Assembly (NCBI RefSeq): GCF_964213995.1
Contig: NC_135827.1
Location: 8,804,001-8,868,000, forward strand
Direction: 5' to 3'
DNA: 64,000 bases
Source of the DNA: Mustelus asterias
Taxonomy: Eukaryota
The notes below the pieces were generated by a model. The model made no database searches and had not been told where the DNA came from. It worked only from the letters and a program-made list of their open reading frames with translations. This document shows, piece after piece, positions 612 through 48,200 of this stretch. The position numbers were made by a program, and so were the translations under genes. Position 1 is the stretch's first letter, and each line of letters opens with the position of its first letter.

Positions 612-1040
612 AAAAGCAAATTACTGCGGATGCTGGAATCTGAAACCAAAAGAGAAAATGCTGGAAAATCTCAGCAGGTCTGGCAGCATCTGTAAGGAGG
701 GAAAAGAGCTAACGTTTTGAGTCCAGATGACCCTTTGTCAAAGCTAAAAGGCACAGAAAGTGGGAGATATTTATACTGTCGGGTGAGAGAATGAAGGGTG
801 AGCCATAACCACAAAAACAAGGGGAAAGGCTAAGAGGTGCTAATGGCAGTCCATAAAGAGAATGGAAGGTGTGAATGGCCAAACGGCAGAGAAGCTGAAA
901 TCAGAGGGTTAAACTGTGACAGATGAAGATGTTGTTGGGGGGGGGGGGGGGGGTGGAGATGGGTGGAAGAGAGATAAAATTGAGAGAAAGGGGGAAAAGG
1001 GGAAGCAAAGTGGGAGAAAAGATAAAAGGGGGATAAAATT
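612..1040 (-). mobile_element. Second PLE-type family, 3' end/pLTR with hammerhead-like motif (706-745)
   Basis: Reverse complement of 40730-41172. Motif AGCT-TTGACAA-AGGGTC..GACTC-AAAAC-GTT-AGCT. Confidence 0.7.
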
Positions 1041-1621
1041 TTAAACCTGAAGGAAATAGCTGAGAAGAATGTTGAAAACAAAATTGCCAAGTACACTGCA
1101 GTTCTGAAAGAATATGGTGTTCTTTTTTAATATATTCACTCAGAGACATTGACAATCATAGAATCCCTACAGTGCAAACAGAGGCTATTCAGCCCATCAA
1201 CCTGCACCAACAATAATTCCACCCAGGCCCTATCCTTGTTAACCCCATGTATTTACCCTGCCAATCCCCTGACACTAAGGAACAATTTAGCATGGCCAAT
1301 CCACCTCACCCACAGCTGTGGGAGGAAACCGGAGCACCCAGAGGAAACCCACACAGACACGAGATGAACATGTACACTCCTCACAGACAGTGACCCAAGG
1401 CTGGAATTGAACCCGGGTTCCTGACACTGTGAGGTAGCAGTGCTAACTACTGTGCCACCAATAAGCGCTGTGGAAAAAAAAATACCACAATGCCACTTGC
1501 TCGGGCCAGAGGTCTGTGCTACAAAGAAATGTTAGGATAACCTTGGACTTCGGTCTACAGGCAAAATCAAAGGAAATAAAACTTTACAAGACAAACAGGA
1601 GGACTGAGGAGAATAATTTAC

Positions 1622-1738
1622 AGTAAGAAGTTTAACAACACCAGGTTAAAGTCCAACAGGTTTATTTGGTAGCAAAAGCCACACAAGCTTTCAGAGCTGC
1701 AAGCCCCTTCTTCAGGTGAGTGGGAATTCTGTTCACAT
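1622..1738 (-). mobile_element. Neptune pLTR mini-insertion with hammerhead
   Basis: Homologous to 51750-51853. Minus strand CAC-CTGAAGA-AGGGGC..GCTCT-GAAAGCTT-GTG. TSD AATAATTTACAG at 1612-1623 and 1739-1750. Confidence 0.85.
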
Positions 1739-4700
1739 AATAATTTACAGCAGTATTTCAAGTTAAGCTAATCACTGAATGGAAATGAAAAGTAAAGGGC
1801 AAAAGGTAAAGGTATAACTGATGCCACACAGCGATCAATGTCTGAAATGGTTTTCTTAGAAGCATATGTGAGAAAGAATGAGAGAATCCTTACCGTACAG
1901 AAGAGGCCATTCGGCCCATCGTGTCTGTATCACCTCTCTGACAAAGTATCTTACCCAGGCCCCTACCCTATCCCTGTAACCCCACACATTTCCCATGGCT
2001 AATCCATCTAACGTACAAATCTTTGCACACGAAGGGACAATTTGGAATGGCCAATCCACCTAACCTGCACATCAGTGGAATGTGGGAGGAAACCAGAGCA
2101 CCCGGAGGAAACCTACGCAGACACTGGGAGAATGTGTAAACTCCACACAGACAGTGACCTGAGGCCGGAATTGAACCCGGGTCCCTGGCGCTGTGCAAAC
2201 CAATGTGCCGCCACTCCACCCCATTACTGATCATCAGTGTGTGTTAGTCATGGCTCAGCTGGCAGTACACTTGCCCCTGGTTCTGGGTTCAAGTTCCACT
2301 CCAGAGACTGAATGCGAAAGTCAAGTCTGACATTGCTGTCCAGCACTGAGCGAGTGCTTCACTGTCAGAGGTGCTGAAATCAGATAAGATTTTTGACCAA
2401 AGTCTTATGTGCTTGCTCATGTCAATGCCCTTCCAAGTCTTGATTCTGTATTCAATTTTTCCTCACGTATTTTAATTCTTCACATTGGATCTACCTTTCA
2501 TTAGCACTAATTATGCAGTGCTTAATGGAAAGTAAAATTGGCTGAAGTATAAAGCTGATGGCCGCTCTGATACCAATAGTTTTCAATGTTGGTGGATCAG
2601 CTTAAAGTTAACATCACATCCACCCTCACAAAACAAGAGGCAATATCAATCTTTTTCCATAAGTACAAAGTGCTGGTCGTGAAATAAACTGACAAATGAA
2701 TCATTCAGAAACAACAAACTGCAGGATGGCATGGTGGTGAAGTATGCTCATGTGTGTAGAATGTGGTTTTGCCCCTTTGCAATCAGTTCCCAATCTGCTT
2801 CATATAGAAACAGGCGGCAGGGAACAAAATATGCAGAACCAACAGATCACCATACACCCTCGCGAAAATGGCAAAGTAGATTTGTGTAACAGTGGGAGCA
2901 AAGCATACCATCTAGGATGCTGGAGATGGGAGAAGTGTTTGAAAAAGAAACAGCAGAATTGTAAATAACAAGTAGGGAAAAGACAAAGCAAGTCAGATTG
3001 ATTTGTCAAGAAATATGAAGAAAATCAAGATGGTCCTGTTTGTGAAATCAGTAAAGCAATCTTTTATTTAGCCTGCCCACTTATCATACTATTTTTAATC
3101 TCAGCATAGTTTATCTCAGTTGGTGAGTATCTCAATCCACATCAGTGAAAGCCAGGGGCTATGTCCTCAATTTAGGGAAATTATTGTGACTTTAGTTACA
3201 CTGAGACTGCATCAGTTAAAACAATGCATATAAAAGCAGAATGTCTCTCTGAAAAAAAGACAATTGAAATACCAGTGGTTTGAATAATCTGAATCAGTTG
3301 GTGTTCTCTGCAACAGTGACAGTTGACGATGGAAAAAGACGATGAAATTATTTATCTCAGTCCTCATCTCACTGGAGCACTCATACTGTGCATGTTCACG
3401 ATAGCTAATGTATCCTGAATACTCTGATTAAATCAAGCAAGTCCAGTCTAACTCCTCCAAGGCTCTGAGGTGTATAACACTGGCCATGATATTTCCAGGG
3501 AGCGGGTGGACTTTTTTCTTGGAGGGATAAACCTGCAAATGCCAGGAAGATTGAGATCCCGCTGACTTTTATAGATATCTTGCCCGGCATCTAATCAGAT
3601 TCCGGTGCGGCTGCAGATGACAAATAGGCAACATTGCGAGTTGATTGGGGGACAGAGGGGAGAGATGAGATGGGGTGGGATTGGTGGTGGAAGCAGAATG
3701 GCAGTTGGGAGGGAAGAAGCACCGGTCAAGATCGTAGGAGTTGGGGGTTGGTGTTTTTTATTTATTTATTAGTGTCACAAGTAGACCTACATTAACACTG
3801 CAAGGAAGTTACTCTGAAAGCTACCTAGTCTCCACACTCATGTTCCCATTCGGGTACACTGTGGGAGAATTTATCATGGCTAATGCACCTAACCAGCACG
3901 TCTTTCGGACTGTGGGAGGAAACCGGAGCACCCAGAGGAAACCCACGCAGACACAGGGGAAACATGCAGACTCCACACAGACCCAAGCCGGGAATCAAAC
4001 CCGGATCCCTGGCACTATGAGGCAGCAGTGCCAACCACTGTGCTACCGTGCTGCTGCTGCCCCTTGTTGGTGTTGGTTATTATACCCCTTATTTTCAGTG
4101 CTACATTGCAAAGTCTTTGCTGATCCTGCTGTGGTGTTGAGAAGCAGGAGAGAGACTGGAGTTCAGTGCTGAGCCACCCCCATTCAGTGCAATAACTCTA
4201 TTCTGGGATGGTTGCTGCAGTTGTCTTTGCAGCAGTGACAAATGAAACACAGTTCAGAAAATAGGCACCTCGCACTGGACTGTTCAAACCTGGCAGAGAG
4301 GTGGGCGGTAGACTGAGGGGAATAAGGAGACCTACTTCAGAGTCAGAATAAAGCAGCCACAATTCAAAAATACCAGGATCGAATAATTCACCAATATTTC
4401 AGATGATTAGAACAGCCAAACAAACGGGATAACTGCTGGTCTCATTGCCAATAGAATTCACAGGCAAGAAAATTAAGCACGACAATTCCAACCCATGCAA
4501 TAGAATTCCTCAATTCATTTTAAAATATGAGAGAGAACAAGACAAAAAAAGTATGTACTTTCAACAAATCCTGGTTATGTCTTCAGGAAACACTGTCAAG
4601 AACATCCCACAGCTTCTTTCATGTGCGGAGTGGGTATGCAGAAAAATTCTCCAAGTGCAGACAAAAAGTATAATCTCCCCTTGGTTTCTAAAGGCAACCA

Positions 4701-5414
4701 TGGACACCAAACCTTACAATGTACATTAATCAATCCTGACTGGTTGACATTCTCTCGATCCCTGCAGGTTTGGAGCAGCAGTGTTGATGAAGGGGGATAA
4801 TTCTGACTGTACTTACCCCCTTCAATCGTCAAGTCCCAGCCTGAATCAGAAATCTATTCAACTCTTATTTTTTTAAGTGTCACAACATGAATTATGCTTA
4901 ATGGAAGTTGATTCCACCCAAGGTTCTATTAGAAAACAATTAATAGAGCATCTCACCTCTGGCTCTGACTTGCAGTCATTTGTTCACTCATGTGAAAGAA
5001 TACAATCATTCACTTACATCTACAATCCCCACCAGGGACTGAGCTGGCACGTTTGTACAAGAATGAGCCAAGTTGGCTGCCTGCAGTTTGGTCTCAGCAC
5101 TGGCAGAACTGACTGCTTTGCAAGCAGATGCTGGAAGTTGCTACAGGGTTTGAGAACAGTTGGTGGAAGTCGCCGCTGGACAGCTAGCAGTCCAAGAACA
5201 AGAACAGTGGGAGGCAGAAGGAGATACTCAAGAAAACAGAAAGAGTAGCCAGCGGATTGTTATCCAAAACACCTGCAATATCCACACACCAGCTTTGCAA
5301 ACTTGGTCAGTCGCATTTGAGCTTTGTTGCACTCTGTGATTGCAACACTTAAACACAGTGCCAGTTTCATCAACGATGTGTTACGGGGAACAAAAAAAGG
5401 CAGAATCAGGTGAA

Positions 5415-6140
5415 GAGTATTGTAGTTAATACTGTCAAGAATATTGAAAACCAATTTAAGATTTTCAGCCAGGCTCACAGTGTGACTAATTTGCGCATTT
5501 TGGAAGCAGCGTATATTCACACAGACAACGCGGTGGCACAGTGGTTAGCACTGCTGCCTCATAGCACCAGGGACCCGGGTTGGGTCACTGTCCATGTTAA
5601 GTCTGCACATTCTCTCTCTGTCTGCGTGGGTTTCCTCCGGGTGCTCTGGTTTCCTCCCACAGTCCCAAAGATGTGCTGGTTAGGTGCATTGGCCATGTTA
5701 AATTCTCCCTCAGTGTACCCGAAAAGGTGACGACTGGGGGATTTTCATGGTGTTAATGCAAGCTGACTTGTGACACTAATAAATACATAACTAACTAACA
5801 ACTATGCCCTTTGCAGACAGAAGGAACATGTCCAATCATTGTGCCTTTTTCAACTAAATAAAAATTTGAGGAGCAGTCATTTCCAGGTTCATTAACCAGG
5901 ACAGTGCCTTGACCAATTAGAGTCAAGCTGCCTCATTTGAAAAAAAATGATCAGTTAACTGTTCCACACTGCATTCTCCATGACAATGCCTACTTCAGAG
6001 TCTACTTGGCAATCAATTAGCACTGTCTTCTGATGTGGGATAAATTGTTGCTCCTCTGTACTGTTGGTAACTTCTTGTCCTAATGAGTGCAAGACAAAAA
6101 ACTTTGATAGCATGTCTCTTTTTTCAACAATACTCAATAT
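5415..6140 (+). mobile_element. Third PLE family: GIY-YIG C-terminus + 3' region, interrupted by a SINE
   Basis: ENQFKIFSQAHSVTNLRILEAAYIHT | SINE | LCRQKEHVQSLCLF. Decayed hammerhead GTC-CTAATGA-GTgcaagAC-AAAAA at about 6077-6110. Confidence 0.6.
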
Positions 6141-6439
6141 CATTTTTCAGAACATAAAGTTACATTTGAGGGAGATAAAAGACCAAGGCCGGAATTCTTC
6201 AGCCGCCGGCAACGCAACACGACCTGCGGGTTTCCCGTCAGCATGGGTGACATCAATGGAAATTCCTATTGACAGCGGCAGGACCAGAGTCGGGCCGCCT
6301 GGTTTGAATTTGAACAAAACTGGGCAGTGAATGGAGGGAGGGAATGTTAAAGGTGGTGGATGGGGTGCCAATCAAGCAGGTTGCTTTGTCCTAGATGGTG
6401 TCAAAGCATTACGTGCTGTGTGCTTGTCGGACCCTCAAG

Positions 6440-8020
6440 CCTTTAGGTAATGCCCGCAAGATCATCGTTGATATTTTACCTTTGAAAGAGGCATTTAAAG
6501 CAGTGCAGGTGGACCCTACATAGTGATGCATAATCACCCCGGAGACAGAGATAATCTCGGGGGTTTACTTTGTGAAAGTAATCACAGTTTGTCTGCAAGT
6601 AACAGACTCATTGACTGTGGGAGGGATCCACTTGCTGGGAAAAACATCAGGGTACGTGTTTGGTGCCTGGTGGGATGACTCGTTATACTCTGATGAGACA
6701 CTGGGCAAAGTAGTCCAAGAAGCTATGGGAAATCACCCATGAATAAATTAGGCACTTCAAAGAACAGATTCATAAGGGACGTATCCAGGTGAAGTTAGCG
6801 ACCCAGATTGCCACCAGTCTGAAACAATCAGGAACACACCATTGGTGGGACATGTTTGTTCCAGGACTGGCAGGGAACCGCCGAACTGATTGGTGGGAAA
6901 TAATCAGGATGGGGATGACCGTAGTGACGAGAGTTATGTTATTATGGGCCACCATATTGTGCTGTTATCAAAGAAAGTCGGTTAAACTGCTGGCACCGGC
7001 AGTACCTCGCTATGCTCCTATGGATCCCTGTAAGGAAGAAATAGGATAGCCAGCAGCTGAAATTTACAGCAGAATCGTTTTGGAAACCTCTGGACGACGA
7101 GCCACCTGAAGGATTCGGAGAGTATTCTCAACATCCTATTGGTCTTTTTGGGTGGTCACACAATGGCCAAAGGGGGGACTGAAAGGGTTAATCGTCACAC
7201 AAGTTTAAAAATCACACAAGCTGCCATTAAAAACAAAGGTCTTCTTATAAGAGTCTTCACAGACAGACACCAAGGTCGTTAGTCTGGACATAGCTCATTA
7301 TATCAGATATCAGCATTGGACAAGGAAGTGATCCATGTTCTAATAACCAGGAACCAGGGGCCGCACGGTGGCACAGTGGTTAGCACTGCTGCTTCACAGC
7401 GCCAGGGGGCCGGGTTGAATTCCGGCCTCGGGTCACTGTCTGTGTGGAGTTGCACATTCTCCCCATATCTGCGTGGGTTTCCCCCAGGTGCTCCGGTTTC
7501 CTCCCACAGTTCAAAGATGTGCAGGTTAGGGTGATTGGCCATGCTAAATTGACCCTAGTGACAGGAGATTAGCTGGGTTCCGGGAATAGGGCCTGGGTGG
7601 CATTGTGGTTGATGGGCTGAATGGTCTCCTTCTGCACTGTAGGGATCCTATGATTCTATGAACAGTTGGAATGCAAAAAGATAATGGAAAACAATATTCA
7701 ATTGAGGCAAGTAAAAACATTAAGTCAATTGGATATTATAATTAAGCAAGTGTAAGGTGATTACGATTGGTTTTAAAAACCATACTTTCATGTGATGTAA
7801 CCTTTTATGATTGGATGGAGACAACTCTATTCTTTTTTATTGGTATATGCTAATTACTTGTAATCGAAGCTGAGACTTTAATTGCTGATGTATTTCTGAA
7901 TTTTTCACTCTCAGTGCTCTGAAAGGATATTCAAGATCCTGTAGCTATAGTAAAGTTAATCTTGAAACCACTCCATTACTTGGTTTGACTACTTGAGGGG
8001 AAAGATAGCTTTTAAATACA
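6440..8020 (+). mobile_element. 3' end of an LTR retroelement/ERV: env-like remnant, PPT, 3' LTR (HE1 inserted in the LTR)
   Basis: Disrupted frame ending EQIHKGRIQVKLATQIATSLKQSGTHHWWDMF..WWEII..VMLLWATILCC..stop at 7049. PPT AAAGGGGGGAC at 7169-7179, then TGAAAGGG. ATTGG boxes, AGTAAA, and a CA end near 8020. Confidence 0.6.
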
Positions 8021-11000
8021 ACAACAAAACTATCACAACAGCCCCGAACTGTTCCCAAACCAGTTTGTAGCCCAAAAACGTTTAAACCTGTTTACCTTAT
8101 CATGCAAACCTAGAAAAATATTGGGTTCGACTCGAGGGATAAGAGAGCTGGATTTGGCAGTAAGAGGCGTCTTAGGCTTTTGATCTTCCAAATCCAACTT
8201 GTCACATTCAGAGCAAGTGAGGCAGCAAAGATATTCAAGTAAACAAGAAGAACAAGCTATGCCACAATATCTCTCATAAAACACTAGTTTGAGTCAACCA
8301 TTTTTTCCCCCCCGCTCACAGATTTTAGATGATGCCCAGAAAGTAACGTTAAAATCATACAATAAAACAAGTTGTCACTGGAAGAAATATCGAATTCTCT
8401 GAAGTGGTACTCAGTGCTGGCAGCATTGGCAAGATCTGAAAATTGGGCATGATTGTAGGTTTGAGATACATCGGGCTGCGTGAATCACTCTCACATCAAC
8501 TCAATCCCAGCTGCTTTCAAAACCTGTCGATACCAACATGAGAACAATGTTTTCTCTTTTAATAAATTAAAATTACTAAAAAAAAAACTTTATAAAATAA
8601 CCGGTTACAAGAATTCAAATTTCTTAAATTGTCAAATGCTGATTGGGATTTGGCAATTTTCTTGGTCTGTACTCAGACGATGGTATTCAGGATCAAATGA
8701 GGGTCACAACTCTGCATCACGTGGGGAACAGTCACCCAGCAGTTACTTTCCCGCAAATTGGCCAATTAGTGGGCAGAGAGCTAATTGTCCAATTACAATT
8801 GGTGGGCCCGCACTTGAAGCTGGAGGGCCAATGGGCCACCTTCCAGCACAGAAGCAGCAGCAGAGTGCATCTTCAGCTGAGAGGGAGAGAGCGAGAGATG
8901 GTGCCTGTGGCTGGAGACATAGGCAGGCAGATGGGGAGGTCCTCAATCCCTGTCAGGTGTGCTGGCACCATCCCCCATCCCCACCCCTGGTCAGCTGCCA
9001 GACGGCCTTCTCTGGGCAGCTCACCCAACCCTGCCCTCTCGGTGCATTTGAGCTCTGGCAATAGGTCTTAACCAGACTTTGATTGACTTTGCCTTGCAGT
9101 GGGGTGGCCAGTAAAATAGCACATTGGCCATGCCTCTGTTTTCGCCTTCAATGGGGGTTAAACATCCTGCCTGAGGAGTCATTGTGGCACAGAAGGAGGC
9201 CATTCAGCCCACCAGCCATTCCAGCTGTTTGCAAAACCATCAAGCCGTACCCATTCCCTCACTCAATTCTCACAGACCTGCAAGTTTATTCCACTCAACT
9301 TGCTCATCCAATTTCCTTTTGATTGTCTCCGCTTCCATTACCCTTGATGTCCCGGGCCATTATTACTTGCATCACATCTCTTGCCCAAAACCCTAAATCT
9401 GTATCCCCTACACCTTCCACCATCAGTTCATTGGAACAGATTTTGTTCATCACCCTTTTTTTCATTCATTCGTTGACACGAGTGTCACTGGCTGGCCAGC
9501 ATTTATTGCCCATCCCTAGTTTCCCGATGGCAGTTGAGAGTCAACCGCATTGCTGAGGCTCTGGAGTCACATGTAGGCCAGACGAGTAAGGACAGCAGAT
9601 TTCCTTCCCGAAACAACATTAGTGAACCAGATGGGTTTTTCCAACAATCAAAAATTCTTTCATGGTCGTCATTAGATTCTTAATTCCAGATGTTCTTTAT
9701 TGAATTCAAATTCCACCAACTGCCATAGTGGGATTCAAACCTGGGTCCCCAGAATATTAGCTGAGTTTTTGGATTAATTGTCTGAGCGGTAATACCACTA
9801 GGCCATCGTCTCCCTCTTTGTCTAAGCCTGTCATCACATCATACACATCTATCAAAGCTCTCCTCAATCTCCATTGTTCCAAGCAGACAATTGTTGATCA
9901 TGTTAGCAATGTGGGACCCTGTAAGCATAAACCAAGGCTAGCTTCGGAGTTAGTTGAGAACAGATGTTGCTCATTAAAGCCTCTATTTAAGAGCTGGGTT
10001 TTCCCCCAGTCTGGGGTTGCTTCTGGACAGGGAAAGGGTTTGAAAGGGAGGCATGGGAACTAGTATTTGTACTGAACTCTAATATAACAATAAAACTGTT
10101 GTGAGTCACATGATGTCTTCTGTTGCCTGATTAGGTAAATGACTATCCACCTGTTAAACAATTGTGAAACTGTCCAATTTCATGACTGATTTGATGCAGG
10201 AATGTAACTCTTAGCTTTGTGGAAATTAAATAGACTCCCTGGAATTCAGAAATCAGATTACCCAAATACTTACGCATCAAAGGTCCTTCCAATTGTACTT
10301 ACAAGGTTAGAATTAGATTAGTGACAGCCATAAGATGGCAAGTGGGCCTGTTTCACTGGGTAACTGAAGACATCTGAGGAGAATTGTCCTGCCTTTGTTA
10401 GGGATGCAGATTATTCACGTAATATCCCAGGTCAAAGTAACTGCTAAATGGGGGAAGATCTTAAAATACCCGTATACTTTTCAGATCAAAGCGATGTTTT
10501 GGAAACTAAAGTTAGTTAGTTTAAATCTCTATCTGGGACATCGTAGTCTTGTTGCTGTGGGGATAGATTGCAGGGAGGCAGTATTTTGTTTCTCTATGTG
10601 CTTTCTCACAGGCAAAGGCAAGGAGCGAAAGCTGCCGGCAATGAGTGCTTGGAAGCGACTGAGGCGAGCAGCAAAGGGCTATCAAAAACAAGGGTGCTTT
10701 TTGATTTTGGAGTTGAGCGACAATGCATTGAAGTCCATGTTTGAGTCGAGATGCCCACAGTTGTGTGGTTCTTAAACAGAATTGGAGAATCGCCTAGCCA
10801 AATGTTAGTGGAAGGACCCCAAGAAATGTCGTATTTCGGAGAGCAGCAGGAACATTGAGGAGAATTAAAGTGAATTCCCCAGAGCTGTGGCACATCTTGG
10901 TTTGTTTGCAGGAGAAATGAATGAACACTCAGGATCTGGTAATATAGAGGGAAACTCTTGGATGTAATTGCAAACAGAAGAGGAAGGAGTCTATTAAGAT

Positions 11001-11568
11001 TATTGGTGTGAAAATCTAAATGTTTATTGTGTTAAATGGGGAGGCAATGGCCTAGTGGTATTATTGCTAGACTATTAATCCAAAAACTCAGCTGATGTTC
11101 TGGGGACCCAGGTTCGAATCCTGCTGCAGATGGTGGAATTTGAATTCAATAAAAATAAATCTGGAATTAAGAATCTACTGATGACCATGAAACCATTGTT
11201 GATTGTCAGAAAAACCCATCTGGTTCACTAATGTCCTTTAGAGAAGGAAATCTGCTGTCTTTACCTGGTCTGGTCTACATGTGACTAATGGATAAGGTCA
11301 TCACTGTCCCCCTCATGGTCTGGTCTACATGTGACTCTACATGGCTGGTGGGCTGAATGGCCTCCTTCTGTGCCACAAATTAATTTTTAAAAGTAGCACT
11401 TGTTTGTTTAATTCTTGTCGAGTAAATCCTTTTATTTAAAAACAAAATCTTGTGGCGTAGTTCTTTCAGGTAGTAGCTGAGAGTTTGAATTTGCTTTTGA
11501 AAGTTACTGTTCTGCCTCTAAGCCATATCACATTATGCAGGTACAATGTTATAGTTTCTGCTGTTGGT

Positions 11569-13293: not shown

Positions 13294-15818
13294 GGGCCTG
13301 ATTTTACCATTTTCATTCTAAGTGCCGAATCTGGGCGTAATGCAGATCCGACTTAGAAATCTGCTTTCAGGCGCCCCCATACACTCTCAGCCATCTCCGG
13401 TCCCATTCGCGCTGTGGGCGGGGCTTAGCACGACCGAAACGATCGGAGCTCAGAACCGCACATGCGCAGTTTGAAAATTTGAAAAAGCGCGCCCGTGTCA
13501 GATCGCTCCCGGGCTGCAGAAAGCAGAGAAAGCGGCCCGAGAGCGAACAGCGGGAGCGATGGTGTACACACACACATCACTGTGCCCCATATCCACCCCC
13601 CACGACCCCACACACATCACTGTCCCCCTTATCCACCCCCCCCCGCTACCCACACATATCACTGTCCCCCTTATCCACCCCCCCGCTACCCACACACATC
13701 ACTGTCCCCCTTATCCAACCCCCCCGCTACCCACACATATCACTGTCCCCCTTATCCGCCACCCCCGCTACCCACACACATCACTGTCCCCCTTATCCAA
13801 CCCCCCCGCTACCCACACATATCACTGTCCCCCTTATCCACCACCCCCACTACCCACACACATCACTGTCCCCCTTATCCACCCCCCCCGCTACCCACAT
13901 ACATCACTGTCCCCCTTATCCACCCCCCCACTACCCACACACATCACTGTCCCCCTTATCCACCCCCCCACTACCCACACACATCACTGTCCCCCTTATC
14001 CACCCCCCCACTACGCACACACATCACTGTCCCCCTTATCCACCCCCCCACTACCCACACACATCACTGTCCCCCTTATCCACCCCCCCACTACCCACAT
14101 ACATCACTGTCCCCCTTATCCAACCCCCCCCACTACCCACACACATCACTGTCCCCCTTATCCATCCCCCCACGACCCACACACATCACTGTCCCCCTTA
14201 TCCACCCCCCCACTACGCACACACCTCACTGTGCCCCATATCCACCCCCCCACGACCCCACACACATCACTGTCCCCATTATCCACCTCCCACTACCTAC
14301 ACACATCACTGTCCCCCTTATCCACCCCCCTACTACCCACACACATCACTGTCCCCCTTATCCACCCCTTCACTACCCACACACATCACTGTCCCCCTTA
14401 TCCACCCCCCCGCTACCCACATACATCACTGTCCCCCTTATCCACCCCCACGCCACTACCCACACACATCACTGTCCCCCTTATCCACACCCCCACTATC
14501 CACACACATCACTGTCCCCCTTATCCATCCCCCCACGACCCACACACATCACTGTCCCCCTTATCCACCCCGCCCACTACTCACACATAACTGTCCCCAT
14601 TATCCACTCCGCACTACCCACACGCATCACTGTCCCCCTTATCCACCCCCCACTACCCACACACATCACTGTACCCCTTATCCACCCCCTCCACTACCCA
14701 CACACATCACTGTCCCCCTTATCCACCCCCCACTACCCACACACATCATTGTACCCCTTATCCAACCCCCCACTACCCACACACATCACTATCCCCCTTA
14801 TCCACCCCCCCCACTAACCAGACCGATCACCACCACTGCCCCCCTCCCCACCGATCGCCCACAGAGTGGCAGCAGACCACCCTGCCTCCCCACCAGAGAT
14901 CCATCTGCCCCCACCACCAGAGCTCCATCCGCTCCCCCCACCCCCCACCACCAGAGATCCATCCGCCCCCCCCCCCACCACCAGAGATCCATCTGCCCCC
15001 CCCGACCAGTGAGCGATTGGGCCTCCCCCCCCCCCCCCCCGCCGAGATACATCTTACCAGCCTCCCTCCTCCCCCTCCCCCCCAGACAATGATCTGGCCT
15101 CACTACCCCCCCACCCCCCCCCCAGAGAATGGTCTGGCCTCACCCACCCCCCCCACCATACAACGTTCTGGCCTCACTACCCCACCCCCCGCCCCAAACA
15201 ATGAACTGGCTTCACTCCCCCCCCGCCCCCGCCACCCCCCAGAGAATGGTCTGGCCTCACTCCCCCTCCTCTTCAGAGGAACATCTGACCGGCCTCCTCC
15301 TCCCCCACCACCAGACAACGGTCGGCCCTCTCGCCCCTCCCCCAGAGATACATCTGACCCTCCTCCTCCTCCCCGCCCCCCAACCAGACAATGATCTGGT
15401 CTCACTCCCCTCCTCCCCCCTCCAACCAGAGAATGATCTGACCAGCCTCCCTCCTCCCCCCCACCACTGATCTGAGTCAGGGAACCCGTTGGAAGCTCTG
15501 AACGCGCCTCTTCAGCAGCTGGAGCACCCGATTCAGACTTTTATTTAGCAGGTCCATTACGGCGCGGTTCCGGATTGGCAAACACGGTGGTAAAGGGGGA
15601 AATGCTGATAAAGTTAGGCGGGCAGTTCATTAATTCAATTGAAATGCATGCAAATACATTTAAATCGTCGTTGCGCCCGTTTTGGGCGCGAATCGAATCG
15701 CCTCTATTCCCGGGTTTCGGTAAAGTGGGGATCTGCGCGGATGCAGGTGCGGATCGCGATAATGGCCTCTCGCCCGACTTTACCACGTTTTCGCGCCCGC
15801 AATGGTAAAATAGGGCCC
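13294..15818. mobile_element. PIF/Harbinger-type non-autonomous element hosting a minisatellite
   Basis: TIRs GGGCCTGATTTTACCATT / AATGGTAAAATAGGGCCC, 3-bp TSD ATT. Homologous to 54680-55693. Confidence 0.8.
13567..14815. repeat. ~40-bp C-rich minisatellite, about 31 units
   Basis: Unit CACACATCACTGTCCCCCTTATCCACCCCCCCACTACCCA with C-run length variants. Looser C-rich repeats follow at 14890-15470. Confidence 0.97.
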
Positions 15819-31938: not shown

Positions 31939-32707
31939 CATTGTTGGCTGGCCAGCATTTATTGCCCATCCCTAATTGCCCTTGTTCAGGGAGTAGTTGA
32001 GAGTCAACCATATTGTTGTGGGTCTGGAGTCACATGTAGGCCAGACCAGGTAATGACGGTAGATTTCCTTCCCGAAAGGACATTAGTGAACCAGGTGGGT
32101 TTTTCTGACAATCGACAATGGTTCCATGGTCATCAGTAGATTCTTAATTCCAGATATTTTTTATTGAACTGGATAGCAAAGGACAGAAGGCTGGAATACT
32201 CCTCAGTTTTGGGGAGAAACTTTGGTTGGCTTGTTTGCGCCATTGGGTGGACTTTCTTGCCCACTGTGCCCTCTTTGGGCAATGAAATCTCCGGTTCTGA
32301 AGGTCCCTGGGCTGTCACAGGGAGGCCGCCTCCATTAAGCTGGCAGCCTCTGTATGTGACACGGGAATGTTCCACCACCTGCGAAATGCCAGCAAATCAG
32401 TGAATTTGTTTCCAATTGCATTGTTAATTATGTAAATCAGCTGCCACTTTAACAGTAGCTGACCTACATCCCTGTCCGTCCTAGGAAATCTTGCCAGCAA
32501 CGGGAATGTCCAACTTGCGGTTCTCCAGTTCTGAAGCAGCATCATATTCGGTTCGAAATGATAACTCTGTTTCTCACTCCACAGATGCGACCAGACCTGC
32601 TGAGTTTTTCCAGCATCTTCTTTTGGATTTAGCTGATACTTCTATTTTCTTTAAAAAAAAACAATTTTTAGCCCATCCAGTATCTCAACAAACTCTTTTC
32701 ACACTAT

Positions 32708-39059: not shown

Positions 39060-39420
39060 TCATAAATGCAGACAAACATCTGGAAGTGCTTCGCAAGAGC
39101 CTATTATCAAACAAAATATGAGACCAAGCTGCGTGAGGTGACATTCAAGCAGATGACAAAAGGTGGAAGGAGGTAGGATTGAAGGAGCTTCTGAAAGGGT
39201 AAAAAAGAAGTAGAGGGGTTCAGGGAGAGGATGCCAGAGATTAGGGCTTTGGCAGCTGAAAAATTGGCTGCCAATAGTGAAGTGGTTAAAAGCAGGATAT
39301 TCAAGAGGCCAGATTTGGTGCAGAGTAAACATCTCGGAGTGCTGTAGGGCTGGTGGGCATTACAGAAATATAAAGGGGTACTACATGGGGGATTTGAAAA
39401 CATTGTTGAGAATTGAAACA
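39060..39420 (-). mobile_element. Old L2-like LINE 3' fragment
   Basis: Minus strand AFNHFTIGSQFFSCQSPNLWHPLP resembles the L2 ORF2 end (G.R.FS...P.LWN.LP). Confidence 0.55.
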
Positions 39421-40729
39421 TCAAGTGTGGAGTTTGCACTTTCTCCTTGTATCCGCGTGGGTTCCCTCCGGGTGCTCCGGTTTCCTCCTACATTCCAGTT
39501 TAAGTGGATTGACCATGCTAAAGTGTCCCTTCGGTTAGATAGGCTGGCCGTGGGAATGATGTGGTGTTGCGGGGAAAGGGCGGGGGAGAGGGACTGGGGA
39601 AGATACTGTCAGACAATCGATGCAGACTTGATGGGCCGAGTGGCCTCTTCTGCACTGTAGGGATTCTATTCGAAGTCATTGTTTAAATGGTTAAATCAGC
39701 CAAAACAGTGCAAAATATCGTGGAAACTCAAGTGAACATTACGTCAAACATAGCGATCTTTCAACATTAGTTTATAAATCACTGCACCCAAAACTGAGCC
39801 ACATGAAAAACTGGACACGTGCACACATTGAAATACTGGGCATCGTGAGACTGTACATGCAAGGGAGCTATTCCAATTGATTTTCTCTTCTTAAGCACAC
39901 AGATATGTTTTAAAAGCTTTTACATGTTGAATGATATCTCGCTGACAAACTGACTAATGAAACTAGTAAATAGTTTAGTACAGCTGTTCTTAAATCAGTT
40001 TCAGTGATTTTAAATCAGGTTAGTCACTAATGCTGGACCTTACATTATTCTTTGAGATGAATCTACTTTCAGCTTGTGAATACAACTGCACCGGGTTATC
40101 TACACAGATATGATTTCTATAAATCAATGGAGGCATTTTTAAAATTTTATTTATTAAAGCGATATGTGGACTTCATTCATTCATACACAAGCAGGGTGAA
40201 GTGCAGGTGCGTCCAGTGCAAGAATCATAGAATCCCTTCAGTGCAGAAACAGGCCATTTGGTCTATTGTGCCTACGCCAACACTCTCTCATCCCACCCAG
40301 ACTCGATCCTCGCAACCCCACATATTTATCCCGCAAATCCCCCTAATCTATAGGATGCTTTTAGAACACTAAGGGGCAATTTAACATGGCCAATCCACGT
40401 AGCCTGGATATTCTTGGACTATGAAAAGAGTATGAAGCACCCGAGGTTTCAGCCTTTCCCTGACCCCCTCCTCCCCGCCCCCCCCCCCCCCCCCCCCCGC
40501 CAAATTAAGTCTCTAAAATGCATATTATGCATCAGCATGAATAAAAATTCTGCATTCATAATTACAGCTTTATTTTACATGAAAAAGAATATCATGATAC
40601 TGACTGGACATTCTCATTGTTCCCCACTTTTCACAGGATATGTATCAGTAGGAACACATACTATAATGTGCCAAACCTTCCATGGAGTGGCAATCGATAT
40701 CGGATTGCTACTTTTTATTGTCTTTTTTT

Positions 40730-41172
40730 ATTTTTCTTCCCTTTCACTCTTTCTCCCTACTTTATCCCCCCTTTTCTTACTTTTTCTCCCCCTTTGCTTC
40801 CCCTTTCCCCCTTTTTCTAAATTTTACCTCTCTCCCACCCATCCTCCCCCTCCCCCCACATCTTCATTTGTCACAGCTTACTCTCTAATTTCAGCTTCTC
40901 TGCCGTTTGGCCATTCACACCCTTTATTCTCTCTATGGACTGCCATTAGCAGCCTTTCCCCTGGTTTCTGTGGCTATGACTCATCTTTCATTCCCTCACC
41001 CTGCAGTATAAATATCTCCCACTTTCTATGCCTTTTAGCTTTTATAAAAGGGTCATCTGGACTCGAAACATCAGCTCCTTTCTCTCCTTACAGATGCTGC
41101 CAGACCTGCTAAGAGTTTCCAGCATTTTCCCTTTTGGTTTCAGATTCCAGCATCCGCAGTAATTTGCTTTTA
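40730..41172 (+). mobile_element. Second PLE-type family, 3' end/pLTR
   Basis: Homologous to 612-1040. TATAAATA followed by a decayed hammerhead at 41037-41078 (GACTC-GAAAC-ATC-AGCT). Confidence 0.7.
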
Positions 41173-41919
41173 TCCAATGCTTTTTTGTGTATTGACATAG
41201 TTTCCGGGGTGAGAGTGGCTGAAAATGAATAGTTCTGAAAACATTTTTGTGACAGGAATCAAGTACATTTTGGAACTCAGCAGCAGCAAAGTCACTGCAG
41301 CCCAAAGAGCTGGAAATTACACCACGTTTTATGACCTGTAGTGAAATGCAAATGCTTCTCAACCACTTCAAATGGGTGAAGTGATGAGACTTCAAGTGGG
41401 TAGAAACATTAGTGTTGCTTTTGTTCATTCCATTCCCAGCAAGACCAATGCATTCGTAGAAGATCACCAAAGTAACCTCAAGCATTTCAACATCGTCAAC
41501 TTTTCACGCAGTTAGTGCACGTACAAAAGACTAACGACTGAACGTGACCTTCCTGGGTTTATGCATCTCATAGACAGGGAAGCCTCAGTAACGGGGCAAA
41601 GAAGGTTGCCATCTGACAAGTCTCTGTTCACCGCCCAAGGTGAATCAGTACCAGCCATTCAAAGCAGTTAACAGGAGGAGCTCAAGATATCATTCATCCT
41701 GAGTTCCTTGGTATTTTCTAACAAGTTTGAATTTTAAATACTATTCCCAATTTACAACAATAAATGAGGATCAGATTTGTGTCACAGTCAAGATATGAAA
41801 GATAAAATTATCTCTCTATTCATCTGCTGGACTATTTCATGAAGGTATTTTTTTTAAGGTCCACCAGAAAATAACAGTTTCTCAAAGATCAAAAGCAGCG
41901 GTTCCGACTCACAGCAACT

Positions 41920-42500
41920 ATTTATTATTGTCACATATGAAAGTATACAGTGAAAAGTATTGTTTCTTGCGCGCTATACAGACAAAGCATACCGTACATA
42001 GTGAAGGAAAGGAGAGAGTGTAGAATGTAGTGTTACAGTCATAGCTGGGGTGCAGAGAAAAGTCAACTTAGTGCGAGGTCGGTCCATTCAAAAGTCTGAT
42101 GACAGCAGGGAAGAAGCTGTTTTTGAATAGGTTGCTATGTGTCCTCAGACTTTTGTATCTTTTTCCCAACGGAAGAAGATGGAAGAGAGAATATCCAGGG
42201 TGCATGGGGTCCTTAATTATGCTGGCTGCTTTTCCAAGGCAGCAGGAAGTGTAGACAGTGTCAATGGATGGGAGACTGGTTTGAGTGATGGACCTTCATT
42301 CATGACCTTTTGTCGTTTTTTTGCAGTCTTAAACAGAACAGGAGCCATACCAAGCTGTGATACAACCAGAAAGAATGTTTTCTATGGTGCATCTGTAAAA
42401 GTTGGTGAGAGTTGTAGTGGACATGCTAAATTTCCTTAGTCTTCTGGGAAAGTTAGAGGCATTGGTGGGCTTTCTTAACTACAGTGTCAGCATGGAAGGA
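41920..42500 (-). mobile_element. Rex1/Babar-type LINE 3' fragment
   Basis: Reverse-complement homology to 27921-28605. Confidence 0.85.
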
Positions 42501-43199
42501 CCAGTTCTAGACCACTGCCGAGCTTGCACCAGCCCTGGTGTACCAGTTGCAGAGGATAAGATGCAGAATTCATTTCCTCCTATTCAATCTTCCTCTCAGC
42601 AGTCCCCCACGAATATTTTGGACTACACAATCTGTGGCCCAGAGGTTGATATTATAATAAATGATGGGTTTTTTTGGTATTATTGTTCACTGTTGCATTA
42701 AAGAAAAATCACACTTTCTGCTTTTTTGAAGTTTACTTTTCTTCAATGAATTTACATCTAAAATGTTATAGCAACATATTTTAACTATTTATAAAACTTA
42801 AAATTAATATTTAATTGACAATCTCAATCCAGTATTAACATCACTAGCATTTCAATCTTCAGCTACCATCCTTCATGCGTTGGTACCTACCAATACTGCT
42901 ATACATAGAGGGCTGTTAACCATACCATTTTTATTTGCTGATTTCATTTTCATTAATTGTCTCTTGTTGAATTAACCCGAATAGAGTTTCATGTTCTTTT
43001 TTCTCATCTGCTGTTACACTTTGCAAAGCTCTAAGGCAGTATCGTCTGCCCACACAGCAAATTGAGTTCCCTCACCACCAATTCCATCCTCCTGTCTAGC
43101 CTCAGTTGAGAGAATTAGAAAAGAAACTTCCCAAGAAGTTTTTACAGACTGAGGGTCCACATGAATAGTCACTTTTTTAGTCATCTAGGGATTGAGGTG

Positions 43200-43415
43200 T
43201 GAGGGGGTGGTTAGCTCAGTTGGTTGGATGGCTGGTTTGTGAGGCAGACAGATGCCAACGGCATGGGTTCAATTCCCGTACCGGCTGAGATTATTCTTGA
43301 AGGCCCGGCCTTCTCAACCTTGTCCCTCACCTGAGGTGGGTGATCCTCAGGTTAAAATCACTACCAGTTAACTCTGCCCTTTGGATTACGGTCATCTGGG
43401 ATGATGGCGAGTTTA
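43200..43415 (+). mobile_element. Additional tRNA-headed SINE
   Basis: A-box TAGCTCAGTTGG and B-box GGTTCAATTCC, followed by a non-tRNA body. Confidence 0.6.
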
Positions 43416-43737
43416 TGAGATCCATAAATCAAGACCAGACCAGATCAATCACACCTTCAGTTTGATAGATGTGGCATGATAAATGCCATGGATCCAGCAT
43501 TGATCATCATCAAATGGGACATTTAGCGAAGTAACATGCAACAAGTTTTTGTTAACTGTGATGAGACTATGAGTGGAGAATCAAAAATGTCCCAGCAAGT
43601 TATAGCACAATGTAAATAATGCCATAACTCACTGCATTATTTCCTGGTACACTGTGTATTATCAATGGCACACACCATTAATGCATCATTGCTAAGTTTC
43701 CAACAAATTCAAACCCATTATCAGTTAAAGGGATATG

Positions 43738-44330
43738 AATACGAGTATAAAAGTTGGGGTCTGATGTTGCAGATGTATAGAACGTTGGTTCGGCCGCATT
43801 TGGAATACTGCACCCAGTTCTGGTCGCCACACTACCAGAAGGACGTGGAGGCTTTAGAGAGAGTGCGGAGGAGGTTTACCAGGATGTTGCCTGGTATGGA
43901 AGGGCTTAGTTATGAGGAGAGATTGGGTAAACTGGAGTTGTTCTCACTGGAAAGACGGAGGATGAGGGGTGACCTAATAGAGGTGTATAAAATTATGAAA
44001 GGCATAGATAGGGTGAACGGTGGGAAGCTTTTTCCCAGGTCGGTGGTGACGTTCACGAGGGGTCATAGGTTCAAGGTGAGGGGGGGGCAGGTTTAACACG
44101 GATATCAAAAGGACGTATTTTACACAGAGGGTGGTGGGGGCCTGGAATGCGCTGACGGGCAAGGTGGTGGAGGCAGACACACTGGGAACATTTAAGACTT
44201 ATCTAGATAGCCACATGAACAGAGTGGGAATGGAGGGATACAAAAGAATGGTCCAGTTGGGACCAGGGAGCGGCGGGGGCTTGGAGGACCGAAGGGCCTG
44301 TTCCTGTGCTGTATTGTTCTTTGTTCTTTG
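43738..44330 (+). mobile_element. CR1 3' fragment
   Basis: YRTLVRPHLEYCTQFWSPHY..RRMRGDLIEVYKIMKG; (TTCTTTG)n tail. Confidence 0.92.
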
Positions 44331-46091
44331 AATAGCATGGAATTAGAACACTGTTCCTTTATCTATGAGACTTGGCTCCAATCTGGTACAGACTGAAGGG
44401 ATGAAACCATCTATATGAGGCCCAAGTGAAATGCAGAGTTATTAGGACACATTATTCCAAAGATTAGGAAGAGTTTTATTGTGCATCTGTCTGCCTTTAG
44501 GAGATCCTGAAGCCATTTCGCAGCAGCAGTCATACAATGAGCCCATTTGTTTTTCTTTAGAAGTGCTCCAGAGGACCTTTCCCTTTTGCAAACTGGCAGC
44601 CATCATTATTAAAATCTTTTTAGTCCTGAGAGGAGGAAAGGAGAGAAGAAATATTGCTGCCACAGTAAGTCTTCTGTACATTCTCATCGCTCGCAAAGCA
44701 AAAATGACACCAACAAGAGCTCAGAGGGTGTAATTATTATCCCATTAAGGTGGCACGGAGAGGATTGAATTGATGCTGTTCAGCACTGTGGGCATGAAAT
44801 GGAAGGAAAGGCTCCCTGCAATTTCCCACACACATTTCCACTCAAATGTACAGCTGAGAATGGATGTTGGAGCAAAGAGGAAGAAATGGTACAATAAAGG
44901 AAGGAAACAAAGGAAGGAAACAAAGTCAGAAGGTGAATCACCTATCATGTATTGCTGGCCTCTAAGAAGCTATCATTATCAGACATGTTCTTGCACTTCA
45001 GCTAAAGAACAGTGAGTGCTAAAGCAAAATGCAGAGGAAAGAAGAAAAAAAACAACATCCACTAATACAGGGTACATTAAATCATTGGGCATAATTCATG
45101 ATCCCATATTCATGAGAGCTATAATGCGCTGAGCCATTCTAAGATCCATCGACTCCAGTGGGACTGGAAAATCCCACCCATTATCTCCAGGCCCATCCGA
45201 GGGTCAGCAGATCTGGCAGCATGTGGAGAAGGATGAGGAATAAATAAATGTTAATGTGAGCCAAGTGAGTCGGGCCGGGAGGGCATAAGGGAAACCCTCT
45301 CCAGTGACAATGTCAGTGCTGCGAAGGCATCGTTTGCTGCCAGCGGACCACTCCCTGCACCGTAGAGCCACTGGCTCTGATCACCACCCACACCCATTCC
45401 CTGAAAAGCTGCGAGGAGGCCGTCTCAATGCACCTTGAGGCCTCCCAATGTGACAGGACACTGTTCTGCCATTGGAAAACAGTCTGCAGCCCAGGAACAT
45501 CACCTGTAACTGGGCCATGGCAGATCAGCTGCTTCCTTCCTTTTAGCAGGCAACCGAACTGCTGCCATTCCTGCTGCTGGAAAAGAGCTCCACAGCATCC
45601 TTCCATCTCTCTCATGCCCCAGTCCACCAGACACCAACTCTGTTTCTCTCTCTCCACAGATGCCGCCAGCCTGCTGAGTACTTCCAGCATTGTCCATTCT
45701 TATGTCAGATAGTCACAACCTGATTTATCAGAATCATAGAAGTCCTGATTGGAAAAGCACTTTTTGTTTTAATCGTTCACGGGACATGGGGAGTGTTGGC
45801 TGGGCCAGCATTTATTGCCCATCCATAGTTGCCCTCGAACTGAGTGGCTTGTTAGGCCATTTCAGAAGGCAATTGAGAGCCAACCACATTGCTGTGGCTC
45901 TGGAGTCGCACGTAGGCCAGACCAGGTAAGGACAGCAGATTTCCTTCCCTAAAGGACTTTAGTGAATCAGATGGTTTTTCCTGACAATTGACAATGGTTT
46001 CATGGTCATCAGTAGATTCTTAATTCCAGATTTTTTTATTGAAATAATCTTGCATGGCGGGATTCGAACCAGCATCTCCAGAATATGTGAT

Positions 46092-46426
46092 TGGGCGGCA
46101 TGGGGTGGCACAGTGGTTAGCACTGCTGCCTCACAGTGCCAGGGATCCAGGGTCGATTCCCGGTTTGGGTCACTATCTGTATGGAGTTTGCACATTCTCC
46201 CCGTGTCTGTGTGGGTTTCCTCCAGGTGCTCCGGTTCCCTCCCACAGTCCAAAGATGTGCGGGTTAGGTGGATTGGCCATGGTAAATTGCCCCTTAGGTG
46301 TCAGGGGGATTAGCAAGGTAGATATGTGGGGCTACGGGGATAGGGCCTGGGTGGGATTGTAGTCGGTGCAGACTCAATGGGCCGAATGTCTTCCTTCTGC
46401 ACTGTAGGGATTCTGTGATTCTATGA
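46092..46426 (+). mobile_element. HE1-type V-SINE, representative copy. Others at about 1154-1460(-), 1882-2220(-), 7358-7660(+), 21630-21935(-), 23622-23940(-), 29215-29502(+), 34490-34795(-), 36725-37016(+), 39425-39670(+), 40222-40445(-), 48862-49175(-), 52730-53065(-), 53693-53965(-), 60832-61170(+)
   Basis: tRNA head TGGCACAGTGG with B-box, V-domain gtggagtttgcacattctcccc..tttcctcccacagtccaaag, CR1-type tail ttctgcactgtagggattctatga. Confidence 0.92.
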
Positions 46427-46865
46427 ACATTAGCTGAGTTTCTGGATTAACAGTCTAGGGAGCCATCACCTCCCCTATAACTTCACGCTGAAGTTTCACT
46501 TCAAAATTTTCAAAAGGGTTGGGTTGGGCAAATAGCCCAATGGACAAATGCTGAGTGGAATGTGTTCTCGAGCCATGTGGCTGAGAAAGTCCCAAGATTA
46601 ATTCCTTGTGTTTGTCTATCTTAGCCAAGTCAGCAGTGTGCCAACAGGCTTCTGCATCCTTGGCTCTGCAGGAGTTCTTTCACCTCTGAACACCGTCCAC
46701 GAACAGACGCCATCTGGCCACAATTACACATTCAACCCTGGAACATTTCAGCAGCTTCATGATGCAAACTGCATTGTTTCACACCTCAAAATTATTTATT
46801 CAGTTGAGGTACCAGGAGGCTATCCGGTGGGATCATTTCCTGGCAAGAGTTTGTGCTTAAAAGTG

Positions 46866-46997
46866 GTCCACTTACCTGATGAAGGAGCAGCGCTCGGCAA
46901 GCTCGTAATTCCAAATAAACCTGTTGGACTTTAACCTGGTGTTGTGAGACTTCTTACTGTGCCCAATCCAGTCCAACGCCGGCAACTCCACATCATG
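46866..46997 (+). mobile_element. Neptune pLTR mini-insertion with decayed hammerhead
   Basis: CTGATGAAGGAGC..GCTCGGCAAGCT. TSD GCTTAAAAGTG at 46855-46865 and 46998-47008. Confidence 0.85.
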
Positions 46998-47512
46998 GCT
47001 TAAAAGTGATGAGCAGTGCAAACTTGAAATGGGCAAGTCGGTACAACTTGTGGTCAAGAGTCAGTTTAGGGATTTTTATTTAAAATGGCAGTGTCCAATC
47101 ATGGTAAAAACACAAGTATTGACATGTTAGGCTTAAAGGTAATGTTACTTATATCTATTTTATATGAATTATGGATTTTATTTTTAGTTATATTATTACA
47201 TTTAACAGTGTAATTTTACAAATGTGAGACAGTATAAGCTCAGTATGTTTCAAACTACCTCTTAATTTAAGGTTAAAAAAAAAATCTCCTGATGTCAGGC
47301 TGGACTGAACTCTGCCCAGCCACAGGCTTATGTCCAGGTTGCTGTGGGGATCGGATTCAGGTCACAACCCATTGAGTAAGGTGCAGGCTTTAAAAGCAGG
47401 ACACAAAGGAAGAAGCTGCTGGCCTTATTGTGCATGGACAGGCAGATTCTCAGAGACAGTCAGAGGAAGAGACTTGGGTGAAGACAACCCACAATAGATG
47501 TTGCTGTATTCA

Positions 47513-47684
47513 ACAGGTTTATTTGGAATCACAAGCTTTCAGTGTGCTGCTCTTTCATCAGGTGAGTGAAGGAGCGGCGCTCCGAAAGCTTGCGATTCCA
47601 AATAAACCTGTTGGACTTTAACCTAGTGGTGTGAGAGTTCTTACTGTGCCCACCCCAGTCCAACGTCGGCGTCACCACATCATG
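47513..47684. mobile_element. Neptune pLTR mini-insertion with inverted arms
   Basis: Minus-strand hammerhead (about 47530-47557) joined back-to-back to a plus-strand copy. Imperfect TSD GCT(G/A)TATTCA. Confidence 0.8.
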
Positions 47685-47921
47685 GCTATATTCATGTAGG
47701 AGGAAATGGCTGCTTTTAGTGCACACACCAAGCTGTCCTCTGGTGAGGATTGAAACCATGTGCAAAAAAACATGGATTGTGAAGAGTTACCAACATATGA
47801 ACATACAAAATAGAACAGAAGTGGGCCATTTGTGCTCTGGAGCCTGCATCACCATTCAATAAGATCACGGACGATCGGTTTGAGTTTTGGATTCCACATT
47901 CCCATCTACCCTCGATGACTC

Positions 47922-48200
47922 TGGAGCTTTGACAAAGGGTTCTCTGGACTCACAACGTCAGCTCTTTTCTCTCCTTACAGATGCTGCCAGATCTGCTGAG
48001 ATTTTCCAGCATTTTCTCTTTTGGTTTCTGATTCCGGCATCCGCAGTAACTTGCTTTTATCAAGTATCACTCTCATCCTATTTTCTGTTGTCTTCAGCTC
48101 TGATGAAGGGTCATCCAGACTTGGGACATTAGCTCTGTTCCCTCTCCACAGATGCTGTCAGACCAGCTGAGGTTTTCCAGCACTTTCTATTTTTGTTTCT
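47922..48200 (+). mobile_element. Two tandem pLTR units of the second PLE-type family
   Basis: Hammerhead-like motifs at 47924-47964 (TTGACAA core) and 48096-48135 (CTGATGA core), each followed by acagatgctg..aga..gctgag..tttccagca. Shorter fragments occur near 32565-32630 and 45637-45690. Confidence 0.7.

Follow-up and report, generated by a model that had tools for sequence, protein, structure and literature searches.

A hammerhead motif with a U3:A8 core pair in the terminal repeat of a Penelope-like element of Mustelus asterias

Does a hammerhead core that carries U3:A8 in place of the usual C3:G8 pair mark a decayed motif, or does it descend from a source element that still cut RNA? This question is raised by a stretch of 64,000 nucleotides of Mustelus asterias DNA (here called the window; contig NC_135827.1, positions 8,804,001 to 8,868,000 of the forward strand, assembly GCF_964213995.1) in which four hammerhead-like motifs lie in Penelope-type repeats, three of them with U at position 3 and A at position 8. 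An earlier note, made from the letters of the window, had proposed that the master element kept a non-canonical ribozyme and that both positions changed together in independent insertions. The analysis reported here establishes that, of the four motifs, three are defunct copies of the hammerhead-shaped RNA of an abundant element. We consider it fairly probable that this RNA is a minimal type I hammerhead in the terminal repeat of a Penelope-like element (PLE). The master of this element probably exchanged C3:G8 for U3:A8 a single time and probably retained a ribozyme of weak activity, which is predicted to need a partner copy or protein for cutting, and it was copied mostly from RNA that appears to have been uncut. 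The U3:A8 variant itself is already known, being described in two published accounts of natural hammerheads (PMC4209133, PMC3088659).

Family consensus and the change at positions 3 and 8

A sample of 400 copies was drawn from 1.37 Mb; those picked by core-containing queries were set aside and the rest were sorted by the four bases downstream of the cut. In the resulting U3:A8 family sample, chosen on downstream sequence only, 95 of 109 copies carried U3:A8 and none carried C3:G8. The sample of a sister family gave C3:G8 in 56 of 82 copies, together with 13 C3:A8 copies and no U3:A8 copy, the C3:A8 copies reflecting CpG decay at a rate equal to that of the other CpGs of this family. Genome-wide exact-match searches, which cover 3.68 Gb, returned 5,547 matches to the motif frame when any base was allowed at 3, 7 and 8, vs 0 for the reversed control, and U3:A8 was found in 2,452 of the 2,593 copies with the exact family background. 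Both the sample and the genome-wide count support a master carrying U3:A8, as had been proposed.

The majority core of the U3:A8 family reads U3 U4 G5 A6 C7 A8 A9, G12 A13 A14 A15.1 and G16.2 U16.1 C17. All core bases are canonical except 3 and 8, the cut triplet is GUC, and the GAAA on which the proposal of the earlier note depended is intact. An extra A follows A9 in 107 of 109 copies, while G10.1 and C11.1 are found in 99 of 107 and 96 of 108 copies, respectively. A 5-bp stem II closed by G10.1:C11.1 and a 4-bp stem I are both present in the predicted fold, and stem III is replaced by A15.1 C15.2 G16.2 U16.1, a self-complementary ACGU without a loop. The core, the extra base, the G10.1:C11.1 pair, the short stems I and II, which covary among families, the ACGU palindrome and the location in the pseudo-long terminal repeat (pLTR) of the element all speak for a minimal Penelope hammerhead. 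It should be noted that an Rfam scan of the window returned no hammerhead match (its only match was a chance miRNA), a null result that is no evidence either way because minimal hammerheads fall outside the Rfam models. We agree that a search for CUGANGA would miss this core; because the family core is U3:A8, CUGANGA-based counts miss thousands of copies here.

The two sister families share 123 of 137 bases over the repeat. Within the ribozyme, 6 of 39 consensus positions differ, namely 3, 8, two loop bases, 17 and 1.1. Positions 3 and 8 are the sole core changes between the consensuses, and the other differences keep or improve the fold, the sister triplet being GUU instead of GUC and its stem I having G-U where the U3:A8 family has A-U. 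C3:G8 is also the core pair of the older relatives, which differ by a double change in stem I (U:A in place of the C:G pair), and in the fetched DNA it is found in 54 of 57 matches to three other hammerhead families, whose stems I and II are different. Because the older relatives and these three families carry C3:G8, U3:A8 is the derived state. As a separate observation, position 6 is U in five older relatives (CUGU-N-GA; L127:831(+), two copies in L266, L245:2237(+) and L215 on the minus strand), which possibly form another core-variant family.

In contigs of four other organisms, aligned at 85% likeness, U3 made up 92-99.7% of the depth and position 8 was A with no other letter at 2%, the depth not being a copy number. 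One of these organisms had U17 in 97% of the depth (GUU), which corresponds to a related U3:A8 subfamily; the pair has therefore outlasted the other change.

Among the remaining copies with the exact family background, 45 were C3:A8, 1 C3:G8, 2 C3:C8, 41 U3:G8, 14 U3:C8 and 10 U3:U8 (the U3:G8, U3:C8 and U3:U8 rows being counted by hand), and 28, a count obtained by subtraction, had a purine at position 3. The double reversion to C3:G8 was observed once vs 0.76 expected among 2,539 copies (2452/45/41/1; p=0.54), and the single-reversion rates of 1.6-1.8% are at the level of ordinary transitions. As double reversions stand at the chance expectation, the masters differ in this pair by a single fixed change, and decay of the copies is neutral. 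Judged from these counts, U3:A8 is one change inherited from the master and not repeated covariation. The insertions are independent, as the earlier note had it, but the change that they carry is a single fixed difference of the master, and the genome-wide check of covariation shows positions 3 and 8 varying independently within the family, which, read to the letter, is an outcome that the earlier note had named as a refutation. Such independence is, however, to be expected of any set of dead copies and carries no information on the master.

No intermediate subfamily was found between C3:G8 and U3:A8. The possibility that the change passed stepwise through a master with U3:G8 or C3:A8 was considered and rejected, since 37 U3:G8 and 30 C3 copies had no common diagnostic base. 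In this comparison, which took the U3:G8 copies from 40 of 41 places and the C3 copies from 30 of 48, the single-mismatch copies were slightly more diverged (4.2% for U3:G8 and 3.8% for C3 vs 2.6%), and the only trait shared by the U3:G8 copies was C7 to U beside the new G8.

That only positions 3 and 8 changed in the core favours selection for a working ribozyme. The case for selection can be made because a single event struck both partners of the only core pair, the other differences keep the fold and the pair persists in other organisms. The motif likely still cut RNA in the source copy.

The carrier element and its copy ends

A 732-aa frame of the element matched RVT_1 (E 6e-7, 29.8 bits, passing the cut-off of 29.6) and, in its C-terminal part at 636-669, GIY-YIG (E 0.006, 17.3 bits, under the cut-off of 22.6). 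The element translations, read directly, show a CX4CxxC linker and, between GIY and YIG, two cysteines. According to the account of Craig et al. (2021, PMC8557442), a CX2-5CxxC linker between reverse transcriptase (RT) and endonuclease and two GIY/YIG cysteines are traits of the Neptune and Nematis clades. Placed by these motifs, the carrier is an endonuclease-positive (EN+) PLE with RT and GIY-YIG, of Neptune/Nematis type, a placement made without choosing between the two clades.

In long copies, the 3' untranslated region (UTR) and the end of the open reading frame (ORF) lie upstream of the repeat, and the U3:A8 repeat stands behind the ORF in 20 of the 20 long-ORF loci fetched. It also stands ahead of the ORF in 12 of 30 loci found via the 5' part of the ORF, with U3:A8 in 11 of the 11 in which position 3 is covered; five of these 12 loci begin exactly at stem I and none at the cut site. 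The ORF likely begins ~170 nt behind stem I. The attribution to a Penelope-type repeat is borne out by an ORF for RT and GIY-YIG that has the repeat behind it at some loci and ahead of it at others. The family counts at least 7,821 copies and is homogeneous and young, with a divergence of 3.0% at non-CpG sites, and in 77 of 144 copies the sequence immediately upstream is an inverted copy. A non-LTR retrozyme, that is, non-coding tandem units devoid of an ORF, was rejected as the carrier: the repeat is joined to the RT-endonuclease ORF on both sides and the copies are dispersed.

The 5' ends of the U3:A8 family fall at stem I base 1 in 73 of 144 copies (40 exactly), past the TATA box in 23 of 144 and within 3 nt of the cut in 3 of 144. 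In the sister family, 60 of 150 copies start at stem I (32 of these 60 being inverted) and 12 of 150 near the cut, the latter at the same per-base rate as inside the ribozyme. Both families have TATAAA at a distance of 30 nt ahead of stem I, even though only 33 of their 60 upstream bases match, and five long copies running into the ORF also begin exactly at stem I. Target duplications, counted in the U3:A8 family only, were present in 13 of 32 non-inverted stubs vs 0.7% in the control. The 3' ends of this family lie at two tail sites ~35 nt apart (66 and 64 of 144 copies). From the copy ends and the TATA spacing, we infer that transcription starts at stem I base 1. Since half of the copies start at stem I and almost none at the cut, it would be mostly uncut RNA that was copied.

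Two further observations concern these junctions. An element 5' part or a piece of the ORF is directly joined to a stub starting at stem I (L344, L347, L357, L358, and L346 with L372), as if the reverse transcriptase had run off one RNA and jumped to another. In addition, a second repeat family with hammerheads has its ends inserted within these ribozymes or immediately behind them (L094, L114, L118 and L064), which may reflect a target preference.

Copies in the window

The copies found in the window, and their parts, are as follows.

612..1020, minus strand: copy 1, 3' end of the U3:A8 PLE, with partial 3' UTR, TATA box, hammerhead and long tail
770..775, minus strand: TATAAA box of copy 1, 30 nt ahead of ribozyme base 1
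707..745, minus strand: hammerhead of copy 1, AGCT at 745-742 and core TTGACAA at 741-735 (U3:A8); stem I, 745-742 with 710-707; stem II, 733-729 with 723-719; private damage G12A and C17U
40782..41174, plus strand: copy 2, 3' end of the same U3:A8 element as copy 1, with TATAAA at 41007-41012
41037..41076, plus strand: hammerhead of copy 2, AGCT at 41037-41040 and core TTTATAA at 41041-41047 (U3:A8); private damage G5U, C7U, one additional A and G16.2A
47925..48061, plus strand: copy 3, short U3:A8 copy running from stem I base 1 to the long tail end
47925-47963, plus strand: hammerhead of copy 3, AGCT at 47925-47928 and core TTGACAA at 47929-47935 (U3:A8); private damage G12A and A13C
48063..48199, plus strand: copy 4, end of the related C3:G8 family, with the short tail end
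48096-48134, plus strand: hammerhead of copy 4, AGCT at 48096-48099 and core CTGATGA at 48100-48106; private damage A13G, A14G and G16.2A
32526..32632 (about), plus strand: older decayed relative with a C3:G8 core and the alternative stem I pair U2.2:A1.2
45630..45710 (about), plus strand: tail-only fragment of a relative, without the ribozyme part

All four motifs of the earlier note were confirmed at their positions by reading the sequence, and each of them carries private inactivating changes, as it had said; its tally of four copies held, with the relatives at about 32526-32632 and 45630-45710 overlooked. Its treatment of the four as one set has to be amended, because copies 1-3, which are mutually 88-93% identical over the shared end, form one family, whereas copy 4 is a C3:G8 relative with 76-78% identity to them. 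Of the five window copies with a core, three have U:A and two C:G as the 3:8 pair, and 49 of 50 cells of stems I and II are paired, in what are few and related sequences.

Several features of the window stand beside these copies. Two polypyrimidine tracts ending in CAG lie 3' of the ribozyme (region of 47964-47982 and 48013-48031; at the same places in all copies) and resemble splice acceptors. Other repeat families, with different stems and a palindrome of the AGCU type, are represented by canonical minimal hammerheads (C3:G8) at 51761(+), 49917(-) and 1715(-), the first two being arms of a single inverted insertion (inverted repeat 49825-50128 / 51550-51853). A CTGAGGA ... GAAAC motif at 54766(-) has a possible stem II and no evident stem I or family, and may be due to chance. 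Finally, a C-rich array with a period of ~40 bases extends over 13559-15470.

Possible activity of the source ribozyme and rival explanations

How could such a ribozyme have arisen and been copied? The change of G8 to A was probably aided by CpG deamination at C7pG8, and C3 to U would then have restored the pair. With transcription beginning at stem I base 1 and the tail as the starting point of reverse transcription, priming on the 5' repeat would run off the 5' end of the RNA and give stubs of 100-140 nt, and priming on the 3' repeat would give longer copies. Two ribozymes, from both repeats of one transcript or from tandem copies, may pair through ACGU and cut after GUC; cutting would be a minor or late event that removes the cap or trims read-through RNA.

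Several results weigh against a weakly active ribozyme copied mostly from uncut RNA. In the ViennaRNA fold of the naked 39-mer, G5-A6-C7 lies buried in a closed hairpin, and in both families stems I and II form but the core is shut within a hairpin. The covariation amounts to a single event, and one of its steps falls at a hypermutable CpG (C3:A8 in 13 of 82 sister copies). At no locus were both repeats found together, the four loci that were extended being all truncated and the two junctions being seen in separate loci. As to the start of transcription, it is placed by copy ends and TATA spacing; 49 of the 73 stem I starts of the U3:A8 family are arms of inverted insertions and hence not all independent, and there was no excess of a cap-derived G before AGCT in 13 copies (5 G, 5 A, 3 C). 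At the cut site, where 228 U3:A8 family copies genome-wide lose homology just before the cut, vs at least 7,821 copies of the family, ~3 of the 100 listed of these 228 start cleanly at the cut vs ~7, 4-5 and 3-5 at -4, -3 and -2, as sorted by eye; the inverted joints among the same 100 run through AGCT (~20-23), CT (~10) or GTCA (8-9), and microhomology explains them equally. Yet another hammerhead family group starts exactly at the cut in 7 of 116 copies (6 of 115 when a duplicate is dropped), located in L064, L131, L163, L192, L127 and L334/L335 and four of them of one subfamily, a weak difference from the U3:A8 family (p=0.14) and from both sisters (p=0.017). Because the C3:G8 sister also has no clear cut-site peak, among 100 listed of 283, the missing footprint is not specific to U3:A8. 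As read from copy ends, the footprint result neither establishes nor excludes activity of the U3:A8 ribozyme in the animal.

Some of these points are shared by the explanation that the ribozyme is a non-functional relic, in which G8 became A by CpG deamination and C3 became U by chance, the sequence being kept by promoter or protein-binding roles at the start of transcription. The missing cut-site footprint of the U3:A8 family, copies that come from uncut RNA, the fast decay of the CpG at C7pG8 and the overlap of the motif with the inferred start site all fit a relic, as do the published findings that ribozyme mutants of the anole element are without effect on insertion in vitro (PMC11167929) and that Naiad elements proliferate without canonical hammerheads (PMC8557442). 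We nevertheless hold a relic to be possible but rather unlikely: among 11 conserved core bases only both partners of one pair changed (~1 in 55 for two random changes, CpG bias ignored), the other four consensus differences keep or improve the fold, the pair is retained by a related lineage whose base 17 is different, and the missing footprint, being shared by the C3:G8 sister, is not tied to U3:A8. The form given by the earlier note, in which repeated joint changes at positions 3 and 8 in independent insertions would make the copies themselves evidence of selection, could draw on the three U:A and two C:G pairs of the window and on a near-perfect association across all families. This association is family structure, however, and within the U3:A8 family repeated covariation is already refuted by the single C3:G8 copy found beside 45 C3:A8 and 41 U3:G8, by reversion rates that match transitions and by the lack of a common diagnostic base save C7 to U; it is extremely improbable.

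The swap might also have been selected for a non-catalytic role, the ribozyme being tolerated, since U3 and A8 complete an interrupted palindrome, CTTTG-A-CAAAG, beside AGCT that could aid fold-back of the cDNA or end joining. The palindrome is present in the U3:A8 family only, and inverted insertions are common there (49 of 73 stem I starts); however, the C3:G8 sister is inverted about equally often (32 of 60) and the palindrome is unused in the predicted minimum-energy fold, which makes this role very unlikely. Another proposal goes beyond the weakly active ribozyme that we prefer. The hammerhead would make up the initial 39 bases of a transcript driven by the TATA box, so that cutting would remove the cap, and U3:A8 would be a selected down-tuning that yields a gated decapping switch, firing when two copies meet or when the element protein binds, and that let the young family out-amplify its C3:G8 sister. 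We regard this switch as quite unlikely, but if it were true, the paired natural families would offer a ready test of the purpose of Penelope ribozymes.

Relation to known hammerheads and significance

U3-A8 was described by Cervera and De la Pena (2014, PMC4209133) in the hammerheads of Cercyon Penelope elements of Schistosoma mansoni, where ~1,300 matches had been missed by the first descriptor, and minimal PLE hammerheads are reported there to have low activity and to cut weakly and only as dimers. The motif described here resembles the metazoan minimal hammerheads of that study in being of type I, in the extra base 9/10.1, the G10.1:C11.1 pair, the palindromic 15.2-16.2, the short stem I and the location in the pLTR, and resembles those of Schistosoma in occurring mostly as single dispersed copies and in the same U3-A8 swap. 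It differs from them in its vertebrate host and in a stem II of 5 bp vs 7-8 bp, and also in that a homogeneous young family is found here, compared with heterogeneous sequences there, and that a C3:G8 sister and older relatives set the direction of change. Natural U3-A8 cores, whose in vitro activity is cited from other work, were also described by Perreault et al. (2011, PMC3088659); they have the same compensated core pair, whereas the section of that report that describes them does not place them in PLEs, and the motif here lacks stem III and cannot fold alone.

With the EN+ PLEs of Craig et al. (PMC8557442), in whose text the function of Penelope hammerheads is still open, the carrier shares one ORF combining RT with GIY-YIG at the C terminus, the GIY/YIG cysteines, the CX4CxxC linker and the pLTR, as well as inverted 5' copies, an optional tail of 30-40 bp and a start site in the pLTR. 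Unlike Penelope as described there, which has an internal promoter, the element here has a TATA box 30 nt upstream of the inferred start. In the anole Poseidon element (PAc), as reported by Frangieh et al. (2024, PMC11167929), the ribozyme needs protein, uncut RNA is the main substrate and the tail is tied to two internal priming sites. The present element is similar in that two internal starts of reverse transcription would make the tail and that uncut RNA would be the main substrate, with no reads at the cut site reported there; by contrast, the PAc ORF starts inside the ribozyme and the PAc core is C3:G8, whereas the ORF here likely starts ~170 nt downstream of stem I. Animal non-LTR retrozymes (bioRxiv 10.64898/2026.07.22.740005) likewise have type I hammerheads related to PLE pLTRs, and were found in the sole cartilaginous fish sampled in that preprint, but they are non-coding tandem units and the copies here are dispersed ends of a coding element. 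Our literature search found no paper on U3-A8 Penelope hammerheads in sharks, though the supplements of PMC4209133 and of the bioRxiv preprint may list such families, and nothing on a TATA box at the start site of a PLE pLTR.

Taken together, these results add an abundant Penelope family of a vertebrate to the known range of the U3-A8 minimal hammerhead, an extension of modest importance. The copy ends give genomic support, from a second clade, to the in vitro result that uncut RNA gets inserted, and the two families make up a natural sister pair, U3:A8 with GUC vs C3:G8 with GUU, for which the direction of change is known. It is in this pair, and in a ribozyme that would stand at the inferred start of the transcript, that the remaining value of the finding lies.

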